Assembly: GCA_039809905.1 (NCBI GenBank)
Contig: JBDHVY010000001.1
Span: forward strand, 150,001 to 182,000
Origin: Candidatus Babelota bacterium
GTDB taxonomy: Bacteria > Babelota > Babeliae > Babelales > Vermiphilaceae
Length of the DNA: 32,000 nucleotides
Direction: 5' to 3'
The notes beneath the pieces were generated by a model. The model ran no database searches, was not told where the DNA came from, and worked only from the letters and a program-made list of their open reading frames with translations. The stretch's first letter is position 1; each line of letters opens with the position of its first letter. Positions 18,016-31,390 of the stretch are shown piece after piece. Made by a program: the position numbers and the translations under genes.

Positions 18016-18957
18016 TTATTTACCTACAAATCTTAAACGATTGCTATTTAAATCTTTAGGACCAATAGCTTCCCTATTAAAAATTAACTTAGGCACACTG
18101 TGCTGCATATAGGGAAAATTATCCCTATTTTTAAAATCCTGAGATTGTTGGACAATCTGGCGCATGGCAGGCATTACCACCTGATCACGTACAGCCTCTC
18201 TGGAAATTAATAGTTCACAAGTTTCAGAAACCCTACAAGTATCTTTTGGCTTATGTTCACGAGCATTAAGAACATCTATATCCCCACCATGAAGCAATAA
18301 TCTTTCAGCCACTGGCCTCTTTAATAAGCGAGAATGCATTATATTACTTCCATCTGCTGTTCTTCTTGTTAGGTCCGTTTTTGCGCATAATATATCGAGA
18401 ACCTCCAATTTCTGCGGATCAGACTTTATATCATCATTAGCAGATAAATATGATAACGGCAATACTCCATCAACAGTGCAAATATTGGGGTCAACACCTG
18501 CTTCTAAAGCTCTTTTCATCCGCTTAAAATCTAAATCCATTGCAGCAGAAGATAATACCGTCATACCAGTAGTTACGTTTCTACTATTAACATCTGCGCC
18601 ATTTTCTATAAGAATTTTAAAATACTCACCACTTTTTCTTTTTTTGCATCCATCAGCTATAAAAAGAATCGTTTGGCCAGAAGCATCTTTTTCATTCAAA
18701 GAATCTTTATCATAGCTTTTACGCCACTCAGCTTCAGCCCTAAAACCAGCCATATCATTTGCATTAAAAAAAGAAAACAAACTTCTTCTCTGTTTATTTT
18801 CCTCGATTTTGATTTTTTTTAAAGGATTTTCTGTTACATTCGTTTCTTCAAGAGAACGCTTCATAGAGTTTATTTGGAAAGAAATCGAACCAATTACTAT
18901 TACCATAATCAATTTTTTGATCATCTCAGACCGCCTTGATATTTTTAAAACAGACAT
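18016..18957 (-). CDS. Ankyrin-repeat protein with N-terminal hydrophobic segment
   Basis: ANK-type repeats (GQTILFIA...LIENGADVNSRN, GMTVLSSAA...LEAGVDPN, LLHGGDIDVLN). The stop lies 13 nt before the hydrolase start, so the two are likely co-transcribed. An alternative start is ATG 18924. Confidence 0.85.
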   Translation of the reverse strand: MSVLKISRRSEMIKKLIMVIVIGSISFQINSMKRSLEETNVTENPLKKIKIEENKQRRSLFSFFNANDMAGFRAEAEWRKSYDKDSLNEKDASGQTILFIADGCKKRKSGEYFKILIENGADVNSRNVTTGMTVLSSAAMDLDFKRMKRALEAGVDPNICTVDGVLPLSYLSANDDIKSDPQKLEVLDILCAKTDLTRRTADGSNIMHSRLLKRPVAERLLLHGGDIDVLNAREHKPKDTCRVSETCELLISREAVRDQVVMPAMRQIVQQSQDFKNRDNFPYMQHSVPKLIFNREAIGPKDLNSNRLRFVGK

Positions 18958-28447: not shown

Positions 28448-29209
28448 TTATTTTTTTTGATTCGCTTCAATATATTCTAGCATAAGTCTTTTATAGTTTT
28501 GCAGTTCAGATTTTTGTGTTACAAACAGCTTAAGTTCATCATATTCTGGATGTGATGATATAAAATCAATAATCGCTTTGAATATAATTGGCGCTGCTTT
28601 ATCTCTGGGAAAACCAAGATCGATGCTTAGTTGCTGCAGCACCACTTTCTTTTTATTGATTATTTCTTCAGAATCCAGAATCCCTTGTAGAAGATTTTTA
28701 TAACAATTATACAAATCTACACCTGCTGCCTGTAAAGCTACATCTCCCAAAAGCGGCCTTCTTCGATTAGACGGAGTAAAATATTCATAATTTTTAGGAT
28801 TTTTATACATTCTTCCATATCCAATACGTGGCTCATAAACAGTTACAAGATCACAGCTGACTGTGTAATTTACTGCTTGCTTATATAACGATTTACTTTC
28901 TTCACCTTCCCAAGATCTATATACATCATCGCTAGAACCACTATCATATCCCGGAGGAATAACCCTGACCATCTTTTCTTTGGAAACAAACATATCACCT
29001 AATTTGTACACATCATCAAACTCTGGTTCCGATAAACTGCTTTGCTGATTTAATCCAACAACCATTACACCACAATCCGAATGCCTATTATACATGTTGC
29101 CTTTGGCAACACAAAAAGTAGTTTTGTTAATTGCAATCCGATAAGAATTACTTTCTGCTGCACGTAAACTTGAAAACAAAACACATAGTATTATTATACT
29201 TTTTTTCAC
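28448..29209 (-). CDS. Secreted hypothetical protein, divergent macro-domain-like
   Basis: GTG start at 29209 with AAGGAG 5 nt upstream. Signal peptide VKKSIIILCVLFSSLRA. AKGNMY...CGVMVVGLN, DLVTVYEPR, DLYNCYKNLL and VVLQQLSIDLGFPRDKAAPIIFKAIIDF follow the order of the macro-domain motifs (GDIT, VNAAN, HTVGP, AY-N-L, SIAFPAISTG..P..AA.I) but lack the Gly-rich loop. Confidence 0.5.
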   Translation of the reverse strand: MKKSIIILCVLFSSLRAAESNSYRIAINKTTFCVAKGNMYNRHSDCGVMVVGLNQQSSLSEPEFDDVYKLGDMFVSKEKMVRVIPPGYDSGSSDDVYRSWEGEESKSLYKQAVNYTVSCDLVTVYEPRIGYGRMYKNPKNYEYFTPSNRRRPLLGDVALQAAGVDLYNCYKNLLQGILDSEEIINKKKVVLQQLSIDLGFPRDKAAPIIFKAIIDFISSHPEYDELKLFVTQKSELQNYKRLMLEYIEANQKK

Positions 29210-29495
29210 GAGAGCTCCTTTTTTATTATATTTTATAACCCATCTCAAAATACAAAGTAAAAAAGTAATAACACAAAAAAGTCATTTTTCATAGCTGATC
29301 TTGATGCCTACGCACCCTATCCTAAAATATTTCAAACTGAAACAAGACCCCTAGTTTCTTTATCCAAAAAGAAGATTACTATGTTTTCAACTTGACTTTT
29401 TTAATCAATACAAGCAATATTATAATATTATTACTATTTTGAATTCCTTTTACATAAGGCTTTAATTGCCATAAAATTTCTAATTGAAGGTTATT

Positions 29496-31154
29496 ATGAA
29501 TTACAAACATACTCTTCTTTTTATCACAAATGCGTTCTTGCTCTCTATATCATTGACAACAAGCCCAATGAATACTAAGCGCGCAGCTCTTCAACAAAAA
29601 TTAAAAGCTAAACAGACCGATAAACTTGCTGCTACAGAAGGCCTTATAATAGCATGCCGTAAGAATAATCCTGTGCTAGCTCAAGCGTGGATCAAAGATG
29701 GAGCGAATGTAAATCATCAATCCAATATAGATGGTACTCTGTATACACCTTTACACATTGCTTGCATAAACAATAATCCTGACCTATCAAAGTTGCTTCT
29801 TGATCACGGAGCAGATGCATCTTGCCTTACAACAGTCAAGAAAGATAATGAAATTCATATGCAACCTAGTCCATGGCTTATTGCCTGTGAAAATGGCTTT
29901 GCCGATATTTGTGATCATATGATTACTAAAGACCATAATGTCATTTTTTCTTCTACACCAGCAGGATATGTTGGTCTTCATTTATCAGCACAAAATAAGC
30001 ATATTGATATTACACAAAAAATTATTGCCGCAGACAGAAAAAAAATCTTAATAAATAAACAAACAACGATCAGACAAGAAACACCTCTGCATTTATCTGT
30101 TTTTAACAAAGACATGGAAACAACAAAGATTCTAGTCGAAAGTGGTGCAAATGTTGATTGTCGATTGAAAAATGGTACAACACCACTTTTTTATGCCGTT
30201 AAAAATAATCTATATCAGATTGCAGAGTATCTGCTTAAAAATAGAGCTAATCCGAACATATCCTTTGAAGCTGGTATCTCGCATTTGCACATAGCCTGTT
30301 TAGAAAATCTTGCCGATATGGCAAAACTGCTGATCGCTCATAAAGCAAATCCCAATACACAAACAAAAAATGGAATATCTCCGCTTTTTGGAGCACTGAT
30401 TAAGAAGGATATTCCTATCTTCAAAATACTTTTAGATGCTGGTGCGAATGTGAATGTAGCAAGTGCAAAAGGCATTACTCTTCTGAATCATGCTGAAGAA
30501 ATGAATCACCCAGAAATCATAAAGCTTCTAGAAGAAAAAGGACTACGTCTAATCTCTCAAAAAGAAGCTGCAATAAAAAGTAATTCTTTTTTTGAAACAC
30601 TTAACCAAGAGACTCCTTGCTCAGAAAACAAGGAAGAAATACAGCACGCTCTTCTAGAAACTAAAGATGCTTCCTCAAAGCCTGAAATCGTTGTGCCACA
30701 TACTTCTGATAATCAAATAATAGATAATGATAATAAAGAAAATACACCTATTATTATCAACGTTCCAGCAAAAGTTGCTACTATACAACGCGTTGAAAAA
30801 AAGCCTACTAAATCTCAAGCGCAACCTTCGAACAGCAAACAAAAAGCAACAAAAATAGCACAGAAACCAAGCGAATCACCTAAGCGCATCAAATATACCG
30901 TATTACAATCTAAAAACTTTAATTGGCCTCGATCTCTTTCTTCCCAACAAGAACAAAATTTCATGAACCGCTTAAAAGATTTACAGGATATAACTTCACC
31001 AGATTTAAGCTCTGACATTAAACCTCTTAAAGGAGAATTGGCAGGCAAATTCAGAATGCGCGTTGGTGGCCATCGTGTTCTTTTTTCTGTTGATCACCAA
31101 AAACAGGAAGTTATTATTCACGGCATTCAACTGAGAAAAAACGTCTATAAATAA
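29496..31154 (+). CDS. Ankyrin-repeat protein with C-terminal RelE/ParE-type toxin domain
   Basis: ATG 29496 with GAAGG 5 nt upstream (the ORF opens at TTG 29484). Hydrophobic N-terminus, about 8 ANK repeats (TPLH(I/L)A...GA(N/D)(V/A)N) and a K/P/S/Q-rich linker. The last 88 aa (30888-31151) read IKYTVLQSKNF...IKPLKGELAGKFRMRVGGHRVLFSVDHQKQEVIIHGIQLRKNVYK. Confidence 0.85.
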   Translation: MNYKHTLLFITNAFLLSISLTTSPMNTKRAALQQKLKAKQTDKLAATEGLIIACRKNNPVLAQAWIKDGANVNHQSNIDGTLYTPLHIACINNNPDLSKLLLDHGADASCLTTVKKDNEIHMQPSPWLIACENGFADICDHMITKDHNVIFSSTPAGYVGLHLSAQNKHIDITQKIIAADRKKILINKQTTIRQETPLHLSVFNKDMETTKILVESGANVDCRLKNGTTPLFYAVKNNLYQIAEYLLKNRANPNISFEAGISHLHIACLENLADMAKLLIAHKANPNTQTKNGISPLFGALIKKDIPIFKILLDAGANVNVASAKGITLLNHAEEMNHPEIIKLLEEKGLRLISQKEAAIKSNSFFETLNQETPCSENKEEIQHALLETKDASSKPEIVVPHTSDNQIIDNDNKENTPIIINVPAKVATIQRVEKKPTKSQAQPSNSKQKATKIAQKPSESPKRIKYTVLQSKNFNWPRSLSSQQEQNFMNRLKDLQDITSPDLSSDIKPLKGELAGKFRMRVGGHRVLFSVDHQKQEVIIHGIQLRKNVYK

Positions 31155-31218
31155 ATATTGATCTATATTTTTTGATTCATTAGGTCTCCTTCGAAGCTAA
31201 ACAAATTGATTGTATTCT

Positions 31219-31343
31219 GCGCGCTCATTCTGAACTTGTTGAAGAATCAAAGCGCGCTATTATTCTTTTCACCCAATTTCCACTTCGTTTCTATTGGGTA
31301 CCCGCCTAAAGACACTGAAGGTGGGTTTAAGCTAATGAGCGCG
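31219..31343. other. GC-rich multi-hairpin intergenic element (candidate small RNA or relic mobile element)
   Basis: Hairpins GCGCGCT/AGCGCGC (31219-31257), ACCCAAT/ATTGGGT (31271-31299) and ACCCGCC/GGTGGGT (31300-31326). There is an alternative long-range pairing GCGCGCTCATT (31219-31229) / AATGAGCGCG (31334-31343). Confidence 0.35.
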
Positions 31344-31390
31344 TAGGAAATTTAAGCTAAAATAGTATAGAAAGAAGTCTGATTCAATTA

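Follow-up and report, generated by a model that had tools for sequence, protein, structure and literature searches.

The stretch of DNA analysed here (the window) comprises 32,000 nucleotides of Candidatus Babelota bacterium (assembly GCA_039809905.1, contig JBDHVY010000001.1, positions 150,001 to 182,000). At positions 29496..31154 of its forward strand the window carries a gene for a protein of 552 amino acids, in which a hydrophobic N-terminus, a stack of ankyrin (ANK) repeats and a disordered linker are followed by a C-terminal domain similar to the toxin RelE. Babeliales (Dependentiae) live as obligate parasites inside the cells of protists and possess very large repertoires of ANK proteins, and RelE, the textbook example of a ribosome-dependent mRNase from bacterial toxin-antitoxin (TA) systems, also serves as a laboratory tool on eukaryotic ribosomes. 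On balance, we favour the view that the gene belongs to a Babeliales-specific family of exported, host-directed effectors with a RelE-type nuclease, and that the probable effect of this ANK-RelE family is to shut down translation in the host. From the evidence described below we infer export of the protein and its delivery to the host, its activity as a nuclease, its targeting of eukaryotic ribosomes and the role of the ANK repeats.

By sequence comparison and predicted structure, the C-terminal 92 residues of the protein (residues 461-552; 30876..31151) are a RelE-type member of the RelE/ParE superfamily. An earlier note on this DNA, made by reading the sequence without database searches, had recognised the tail as such a toxin, and this reading is borne out, although the window domain taken as a single sequence stays below the Pfam threshold (ParE_toxin, E=0.12, 13.4 bits against a cutoff of 23; Gp49, E=0.14). 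An NCBIfam scan of the single domain gave no match, and phmmer against the sequences in PDB linked it to Rv2866 (RelG) of Mycobacterium tuberculosis at E=4.7e-4, other RelE matches being weaker. Exhaustive phmmer comparison ties it to bona fide PF05016 toxins with E values from 1e-7 to 1e-3. The relationship is clearest with a family profile derived from 42 homologous C-terminal domains (alignment A1), which are 34-86% identical to the window domain. Among PDB sequences the profile matches aRelE of Pyrococcus horikoshii (1WMI) across its full length at E=1.1e-9 and RelE3 of Methanocaldococcus jannaschii (3BPQ) at E=4.9e-7, and further matches include Rv2866 (3G5O), RelE1 of M. tuberculosis, 9G12 and YoeB. 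Escherichia coli RelE in its free, RelB-bound and ribosome-bound forms (4V7K/4FXE) is matched with E values from 1e-3 to 8e-3, and no characterised ParE is found among the PDB sequence matches of the profile. Taken singly, 31 of the 42 family members match PF05016 at E<=0.01, the best of them at 1.2e-7.

The structural models agree with this assignment. AlphaFold2 (AF2) modelled the window domain alone with a predicted local distance difference test score (pLDDT) of 85.7 and a predicted template modelling score (pTM) of 0.77, and the 18 best Foldseek matches of this model in PDB are all RelE, YoeB or YafQ toxins, led by 3G5O_C (TM 0.75/0.79, probability 1.00) and including 6N90, an entry titled 'YoeB/ParE toxin'. 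In domain numbering, to which 460 is added to obtain protein numbering, the model consists of a strand at 8-11, a helix at 23-38, strands at 48-50, 58-63, 66-73 and 78-86, and a helix at 87-90; the full-length model places the strand at 468-471, the helix at 483-498, the further strands at 508-510, 518-523, 526-533 and 538-546, and the short terminal helix at 547-551. The check proposed in the earlier note, a profile search against RelE/ParE families with residues mapped onto a structural model, has therefore yielded significant matches for the family profile, with RelE-type structures on top.

Examination of the multiple alignment of the 42 domains revealed four invariant residues, R62, R67, F70 and Y91 (R522, R527, F530 and Y551 of the protein), and six more that are at least 90% conserved, Y7, W17, R60, G64, R87 and K88 (Y467, W477, R520, G524, R547 and K548); the columns L21, L36, D47 and I79 also reach at least 90%. 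A hidden Markov model (HMM) alignment to the ribosome-bound RelE of E. coli pairs R60 with K52, R62 with R56, R67 with R61 and R87 with R81. The hhalign program concurs on the equivalents of R61 and R81, and Y91 holds the position of the C-terminal tyrosine (Y87 in RelE), like Y89 of aRelE. The predicted active site thus comprises R520, R522, R527, R547, K548 and Y551. In E. coli RelE the mutations R61A, R81A and Y87A cripple the toxin and the double change R81A/Y87F abolishes its activity, while K52A and K54A matter little (Neubauer et al., PMC2807027). The positions equivalent to R61, R81 and Y87 are kept in 41-42 of the 42 fused domains, and of 117 free-standing relatives, 106-117 have identical residues in these columns. 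The core motif and the C-terminal R-x3-Y, which the earlier note had taken to carry catalytic residues, thus stand, and the loss of conserved basic and tyrosine residues that it had named as a contrary outcome did not occur in the 42-domain alignment. Moreover, no other region of the protein is as conserved as the RelE domain: per 20-residue block, the identity of homologues to the window residue is 0.25-0.65, compared with about 0.05-0.4 in the ANK region. Such a pattern looks like the signature of selection for canonical RelE chemistry, with the limit that the catalytic basic residues also bind rRNA and mRNA, so that their conservation by itself is no proof of cleavage.

The fused architecture is shared by a whole family. 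An exhaustive HMMER search of 1.84 billion representative proteins produced 135 matches at E<=1e-3. Forty-three of them are long proteins (197-818 amino acids) with the domain at the C-terminal side, and all but one of these belong to the ANK-RelE family, in which the domain occupies the extreme C-terminus; ANK repeats were detected in each of the 22 members scanned. The other matches are short, mostly about 58-130 amino acids. Ten of the short proteins were scanned, and nine are free-standing toxins, all of PF05016 (six above the Pfam cutoff, three below it at E of about 1e-3); the tenth (P0011) has no Pfam match and is the split-off tail of an ANK-RelE gene. The 42 fused domains group together as a single pure clade on a neighbour-joining tree, apart from the 117 free-standing relatives, a result that agrees with one fusion event and subsequent radiation, and the pair W477-P478 (W17 in domain numbering) is specific to this clade. 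A database search for other ANK-RelE fusions, as the earlier note had advised, has thus uncovered a family of at least 42 members in a single clade. A separate fusion, unrelated to the ANK family, was seen in P0117 (233 amino acids), where a PF05016 domain (1e-7) stands behind a region of about 140 residues with an initial hydrophobic segment; this protein may be of the membrane-associated type discussed in PMC11980606.

The fused family surfaced solely in the exhaustive HMMER search. A word-indexed protein search returned no match with the last 102 amino acids of the window protein, and, when queried with the profile of 42 sequences, it yielded one split copy and otherwise free-standing toxins alone. 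A DNA-level search with eight sequences and one pattern, [FY]R[LM]RVGG[HY]R[IV], recovered few fused loci (L003, L073 and L078) among many ordinary RelE genes, so that counts made at the DNA level understate the family. Viral contigs gave two weak tblastn matches (1e-6 and 6e-6), and the family profile placed neither of them in a long open reading frame (ORF). The family proteins come from metagenome and metagenome-assembled genome sources only (Logan, ENA and JGI, with one from NCBI), and the GC content of all fusion-bearing loci is 33-37%. None has a curated name; two members bear the automatic IMG product name 'ankyrin repeat protein/mRNA-degrading endonuclease RelE of RelBE toxin-antitoxin system'.

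Several loci carry the genes in tandem. Locus L002 has four consecutive copies, one of them split, and a fifth ANK gene that runs off the locus; locus L073 has two tandem copies, and locus L157 has two copies at a site that is syntenic with that of L002, behind the ATP synthase a and c genes. The two syntenic regions (L002 4383-12249 and L157 5691-10238), which come from two related genomes, share the order WD40, Sua5, ATP synthase a, ATP synthase c and array, and differ in the number of copies, at least five versus two. The first copy of L002 is split into a 523-residue ANK ORF and an 82-residue RelE ORF (P0011), and the copy in L003 looks frameshifted (2425-3021 and 2978-4270). Together, the differing copy numbers and the split or frameshifted copies suggest rapid birth and death of copies. 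The paralogues of the L002 array are 83-97% identical in the RelE domain versus 49-59% in the rest of the protein, and those of L073 are 70% versus 54% identical. Within arrays, therefore, the toxin stays constant while the ANK region varies.

No antitoxin gene was found beside the window gene. The intergenic region upstream (29249..29495) leads to a divergent gene and the spacer downstream (31155..31390, 236 nt) to a convergent one, an arrangement that is not operonic, and neither the ORF list nor homology indicated an antitoxin-like ORF upstream or an antitoxin or immunity ORF downstream. The five small ORFs of the two spacers match no Pfam family even at E<=1. As a set of candidate antitoxins we used 118 small ORFs located just upstream of free-standing RelE relatives; 68 of these have homologues among the others, which indicates real antitoxin families. 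Comparison of the 118 candidates with 1,315 ORFs of the window and of loci L001, L002, L003, L073 and L078, fusion proteins included, yielded no significant homologue, the best match (E=0.017) not being significant given the number of comparisons. The three spacers that separate complete copies in the L002 array measure about 155 nt, and no antitoxin-like ORF adjoins any copy of this array; the fusion genes of P0008 and P0017 stand among housekeeping genes without a small partner. In total, no antitoxin was found beside any of the 11 fusion genes examined, the window gene and ten others. In the control set of free-standing loci, a small ORF on the same strand lies upstream in 89 of 108 cases and downstream in 73 of 108. 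Since the downstream ORF is nearly as common as the upstream one, stop-to-stop adjacency is an unspecific criterion, and the homology search was used instead. The claims that the antitoxin position is empty and that the upstream region is non-coding up to a divergent gene are therefore upheld by the ORF list, Pfam and the antitoxin homology search, and the overlooked small antitoxin gene that would have made this an ordinary pair was found neither beside the window gene nor beside the ten other fusions.

The domains that precede the toxin, claimed in the earlier note as a hydrophobic N-terminus, about eight ANK repeats and a low-complexity linker, were recovered by Pfam and by a full-length AF2 model with a mean pLDDT of 81.2, based on an alignment of 24 homologues from which the L002 sequences were left out. 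Residues 1-24 (29496..29567) comprise MNYKH and a hydrophobic helix, a signal-peptide-like or membrane-anchor segment, and are followed by a near-invariant Met25; the best hydrophobic 12-mer begins at residue 7 (Kyte-Doolittle value 2.22), and the modelled helix spans residues 3-20. A long basic, Gln-rich helix at residues 25-55 (29568..29660) leads into the ANK stack, and K/R/Q-rich stretches behind the leader are also present in many homologues. The ankyrin solenoid occupies residues 81-350 approximately (29736..30545) and is recognised by Pfam as Ank_2 (E=1.3e-38) and Ank (E=1.1e-34). It has TPLH-like motifs at residues 82, 194, 227, 260, 293 and 326 and is modelled with pLDDT >90 as eight helix pairs that lie within residues 85 to 347. 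Next comes a cap helix at residues 355-372 (30558..30611; modelled helix 355-370) with the conserved motif FFETLNQE, for which the family consensus is FFAELNQE. The linker (residues 375-460; 30618..30875) comprises about 86 residues rich in K, E, P, S, I and Q, is predicted to be disordered (pLDDT <50) and is unconserved, the mean identity of homologues to the window residue being 0.08-0.12 in 20-residue blocks. All these features lie on the forward strand. The NCBIfam and Pfam scans of the first 460 residues found nothing but ANK. Matches to the NCBIfam models 'Dot/Icm T4SS effector Ank*' (type IV secretion system effectors), at 24-108 bits against cutoffs of 500-1400, were rejected as ANK-repeat noise that indicates no membership.

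The window protein and 39 homologues start with Met, and in 26 of these 40 sequences, that of the window protein among them, a strongly hydrophobic 12-mer stands behind a short N-terminus that is polar or basic. The family consensus of the leader is MNxK-hydrophobic-...AM..K, and the Met behind the hydrophobic stretch (M25 in the window protein) is at least 90% conserved. Cluster representatives P0016 and P0018, and likewise P0009 and P0033, start exactly at this conserved Met or at the FFAELNQE motif. The coincidence hints that the proteins are processed there, that shorter isoforms exist or that starts were systematically miscalled. For the window gene, initiation at Met25 was considered and rejected, as no sequence resembling a Shine-Dalgarno (SD) site precedes this codon.

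Published genomes of the order provide the background for a function in the host. In Babela massiliensis, signal peptides were predicted in 79 of 126 ANK proteins, which are thought to be secreted into the host (PMC4378268), and the same was proposed for Chromulinavorax destructans, where 78% of 98 ANK proteins have predicted signal peptides (PMC6561590). The TM6 genomes conserve Sec and the type II secretion system (T2SS) with two copies of gspD (PMC4776705). The prevalence of signal peptides among Babeliales ANK proteins fits the inference of the earlier note that the fusion protein is a secreted, host-directed effector. We propose the following mechanism. First, the Sec-type leader at the N-terminus would engage Sec before the C-terminal toxin domain exists, so that the RelE domain would never fold beside bacterial ribosomes. 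The protein would then exit the cell via T2SS, vesicles or lysis. In the host, the variable ANK stack would bind a host component and provide specificity, and the tether of about 86 residues would allow the RelE domain to reach the ribosomal A site, or would be clipped, setting the domain free. Finally, the RelE domain would enter the A site and cut the mRNA codon, damping or reprogramming host translation. This last step is plausible because the RelE of E. coli is active on eukaryotic ribosomes as well, where it cuts the codon in the A site (Andreev 2008, as cited in PMC2807027 and PMC11980606), and multidomain RelE homologues have been reported to cut A-site codons (PMC11980606). A toxin that is made last, in a protein committed to export and aimed at host ribosomes, would need no antitoxin. 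In a bolder version of the proposal, which we put forward tentatively as falling somewhat short of an even chance, the family would be a trans-kingdom weapon: the monophyletic RelE warheads would be adapted to 80S ribosomes, each mounted on a different ANK array that directs it to a host compartment, ribosome population or partner, and the paralogues of an array would cut different subsets of host mRNAs.

Several observations weigh against a host-directed RelE nuclease. A clear leader is lacking in 14 of the 40 Met-initial proteins, some of which are probably start-codon miscalls or fragments. The hydrophobic segment of the window protein ends in ...SLTTSP-MNTKRAALQQKLKAK, with Pro beside any likely cleavage site, an atypical context for signal peptidase. 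A strongly basic stretch (KR..K.KAK) comes right after this segment, and by the positive-inside rule the segment could therefore be a membrane anchor that keeps ANK-RelE in the bacterial cytoplasm. Sec reaches the periplasm only, and the protein would need an onward path to the host cytosol (T2SS, vesicles or lysis). The N-terminal extension of 460 residues might block entry into the A site unless the domain is released, and no processing site was identified. Some other part of the 1.23-Mb genome could encode an antitoxin. Finally, the domain has no clear alpha1, a single long helix standing where RelE has alpha1 and alpha2, with a conserved coil KWPRSL instead, and K54 of RelE is without an equivalent, since it sits in a two-residue insertion that is absent here, as it is in aRelE.

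The last two points, together with the clade-specific W477-P478 in the coil, the scores of the single window sequence below the Pfam and NCBIfam thresholds and the capacity of the conserved basic residues to bind rRNA and mRNA, might also be explained if the RelE fold were kept as a non-catalytic ribosome-binding, RNA-binding or docking module, which brings the ANK stack to ribosomes or stalls translation without cutting. We consider this unlikely. The equivalents of R61, R81 and Y87 are retained in the fused domains as in free-standing toxins, which makes a non-catalytic role less likely, and archaeal aRelE (1WMI), which matches best in structure and sequence, is an active toxin although it has no K54 insertion either (Takagi 2005, as cited in PMC2807027).

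The basic stretch behind the hydrophobic helix, which could favour an N-out/C-in anchor, bears on another explanation, in which a membrane-tethered or cytoplasmic RelE domain is restrained in cis by the ANK stack and acts on the bacterium itself, causing growth arrest, a developmental switch or abortive defence. Ankyrin repeats are known as immunity domains (Imm-ank, PMC3482391), and single-gene fusions of toxin and antitoxin exist in the RelE/ParE superfamily (PMC11980606). In addition, the full-length protein matches the PADLOC candidate models PDC-M72A (1.4e-47) and 'Ankyrin'; however, these matches span the ANK repeats only (residues 166-348), and the RelE domain matches nothing. Neither Pfam nor the antitoxin homology search found an antitoxin-like domain in the polypeptide, and a variable ANK region joined to a disordered, unconserved linker is the opposite of a co-evolving pair of inhibitor and toxin. 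Tandem arrays of up to 4-5 paralogues in reduced genomes of about 1-1.5 Mb suit effector families better than self-regulators, and the same leader also occurs on ordinary ANK proteins of this phylum, for which secretion is predicted. Self-directed action therefore seems to us decidedly improbable, and an exported effector remains the preferred reading.

An exported toxin could also be aimed at other bacteria that share the protist host. Tox-RelE domains sit at the C-termini of polymorphic toxins exported by Sec and T2SS (PMC3482391), many bacteria co-reside in amoebae (PMC4378268), and the window itself holds a cassette of PT-HINT and Ntox21 domains (13096-14034), so that the genome owns parts of polymorphic toxins. 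Nevertheless, an inter-bacterial polymorphic toxin is quite a remote prospect here. None of the 11 fusion genes is followed by an immunity gene, the array spacers of about 150 nt containing no ORF, and a Pfam scan of the window protein detected neither RHS or filamentous modules nor a HINT pre-toxin module. The polymorphism is reversed, with a constant toxin and varying N-terminal repeats, and there is no known route for an ANK protein into the cytoplasm of another bacterium. Lastly, a ParE-type gyrase poison in place of an mRNase is very hard to credit and was rejected: the sole Pfam family matched, PF05016, is named 'ParE_toxin', but it also includes E. coli RelE and an mRNase subcluster (PMC11980606), all profile matches in PDB are RelE/YoeB mRNases and so are the structural matches save 6N90, and ParE toxins lack the BECR RNase catalytic residues (PMC11980606) that are conserved here.

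The boundaries of the window gene are supported by two readings. The longest ORF is 29484..31154 (+), with a TTG start and 556 amino acids, and the in-frame ATG at 29496 gives 552 amino acids plus the stop codon, a complete coding sequence. An independent gene caller applied to the identical Logan contig SRR27308757_560085 (locus L001, 7187-8845) chose the same ATG and stop, in agreement with the ORF at 29496-31154 claimed in the earlier note. A sigma-70-like consensus scan located a promoter-like site at 29449..29477 on the forward strand (TTTACA-17 nt-TAAAAT, 10 of 12 positions matching); 12 such sites were found versus 8.8 expected in shuffles, which is no enrichment. An SD-like GAAGG was read at 29486-29490 (+), before the ATG. 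Both elements are consistent with a start at 29496, short of proof.

The 236-nt spacer downstream had been described as structured. Its length is confirmed; the structure is only mildly supported by the fold of the forward strand (z=-2.06). An element at about 31215-31348 consists of a 15-bp GC-rich closing stem, 31215-31229 (TTCTGCGCGCTCATT) paired with 31333-31347 (AATGAGCGCGTAGGA), around three hairpins. The spacer matches no Rfam family, and the closing-stem sequence has no second copy in the window, which leaves an explanation as a repeat element unsupported; the element could be a bidirectional terminator or a small RNA. The genes on either side, 28448-29248 (-) and 31391 to beyond the window end (L001 9082-9888, -), encode distant paralogues with 26% identity over 140 amino acids (E=8e-4). 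Neither has a significant Pfam family; there is one sub-threshold match to the Macro domain (E=0.064), and the upstream paralogue has a signal-like N-terminus.

Elsewhere, the window contains housekeeping genes (RF1, SecD, MreC, HemN and tRNAs) and a cluster of genes of eukaryote-like or virulence type at 4026-5666 (-), 5725-6930 (-), 9181-10245 (-), 14242-15111 (+) and 18016-18957 (-), whose members include a PLA2_B lysophospholipase, a clostripain-family C11 peptidase, a HIT/DcpS-like protein, a PLD-like protein and a short ANK protein. An ATP-dependent DNA ligase is encoded just past the window (L001 10565-12406). The gene at 13096-14034 (-) encodes a 312-residue protein with PT-HINT/Hint_2/Intein_splicing matches at residues 28-154 and a C-terminal Ntox21 domain (E=5e-10, above the Pfam cutoff). 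It is a cassette of polymorphic-toxin type in a reduced intracellular genome. Downstream on the same strand lies a 170-residue ORF (12529-13041) without a Pfam family, which could be the immunity gene of the cassette.

If the proposed function is correct, ANK-RelE would be the first case in nature of an effector of the RelE family that attacks eukaryotic translation, and it would do so without any antitoxin; no naturally occurring effector of this family directed against a eukaryote came up in our literature searches. It would show a TA toxin losing its antitoxin and turning into a virulence module in a parasite of protists, and the family would represent naturally 'addressable' translation-cleaving enzymes, with the address supplied by the ANK array. 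It also offers a concrete biochemical function to test for the ANK proteins of Dependentiae, for which no enzymatic activity is given in PMC4378268, PMC6561590 and PMC4776705. The same searches found no description of ANK-RelE fusions, the sole prior recognition being the two automatic IMG product names. In a recent survey of the superfamily (Gerdes 2025, PMC11980606), multidomain RelE/ParE proteins without an identifiable antitoxin, or in families with too few members, were left out, and ankyrin and Dependentiae are mentioned neither in its text nor in its supplements; ANK-RelE belongs to this omitted, antitoxin-less class.

Compared with type II RelE toxins (E. coli RelE, aRelE 1WMI, M. jannaschii RelE3 3BPQ and RelG/Rv2866 3G5O), the window domain has the common fold, the length of about 90 amino acids and the Arg/Arg/Arg/Tyr constellation, and its tail R-K-N-V-Y-K resembles R-G-R-A-Y-K of aRelE. 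Unlike them, it forms the C-terminal 17% or so of a 552-residue protein without a RelB-type antitoxin gene or domain, has the KWPRSL coil in place of alpha1 and falls with the other fused domains into a clade of its own. With no adjoining antitoxin and a toxin that is not free-standing, the gene is no type II TA module, and it is no fused TA system either, as Pfam, NCBIfam and antitoxin homology found no ribbon-helix-helix (RHH), helix-turn-helix (HTH) or Phd/YefM-type domain in the polypeptide.

Tox-RelE, described by Zhang, de Souza, Anantharaman, Iyer and Aravind in 2012 (PMC3482391), is a C-terminal RelE domain on polymorphic toxins exported by Sec or T2SS, with RHS or HINT modules and Imm54 encoded downstream, known from Actinobacteria, Proteobacteria, Bacteroidetes, Cyanobacteria, Firmicutes and Fusobacteria. 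Like Tox-RelE, the window protein has a TA-derived, predicted RNase warhead at the extreme C-terminus of a large repeat protein, and its hydrophobic N-terminus is a putative Sec-type leader. It differs in its ankyrin repeats, in its Dependentiae lineage, in the lack of HINT and RHS modules and of a downstream immunity ORF, and in the reversed pattern of variation, the N-terminal repeats being the variable part; it is thus not a classical polymorphic toxin. The signal-bearing ANK proteins of Babela and Chromulinavorax are closer in origin: they belong to the same phylum and share the layout of leader and ANK repeats, the expansion and clustering of paralogues and the presumed secretion. They have been published, however, as interaction modules of unknown function, with no enzymatic C-terminus and no RelE (PMC4378268, PMC6561590, PMC4776705).

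In several other organisms that live inside eukaryotic cells, ANK repeats are combined with a C-terminal toxic or enzymatic domain. Spaid of Spiroplasma joins a signal peptide and ANK repeats to an OTU domain, and latrotoxin-CTD proteins occur in Wolbachia and Rickettsiella. In a mimivirus, Ntox19, an RNase of the BECR fold, is fused to ankyrin repeats (PMC3482391). These cases involve other enzyme families and lineages, and none has a bona fide RelE. The VapC of Rickettsia (PMC12321070) is likewise a TA-type RNase of an obligate intracellular bacterium that acts on host RNA, but it is a PIN-domain RNase and is free-standing with its antitoxin VapB, whereas here the toxin is fused into a scaffold and the antitoxin is lost. 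Judged from the sequences and models, the window protein unites the RelE fold and catalytic residues with the features of Babeliales ANK proteins. C-terminal RelE domains on exported proteins (Tox-RelE) and signal-bearing ANK effectors were thus already known, and what is new is the ANK-RelE family that combines them.

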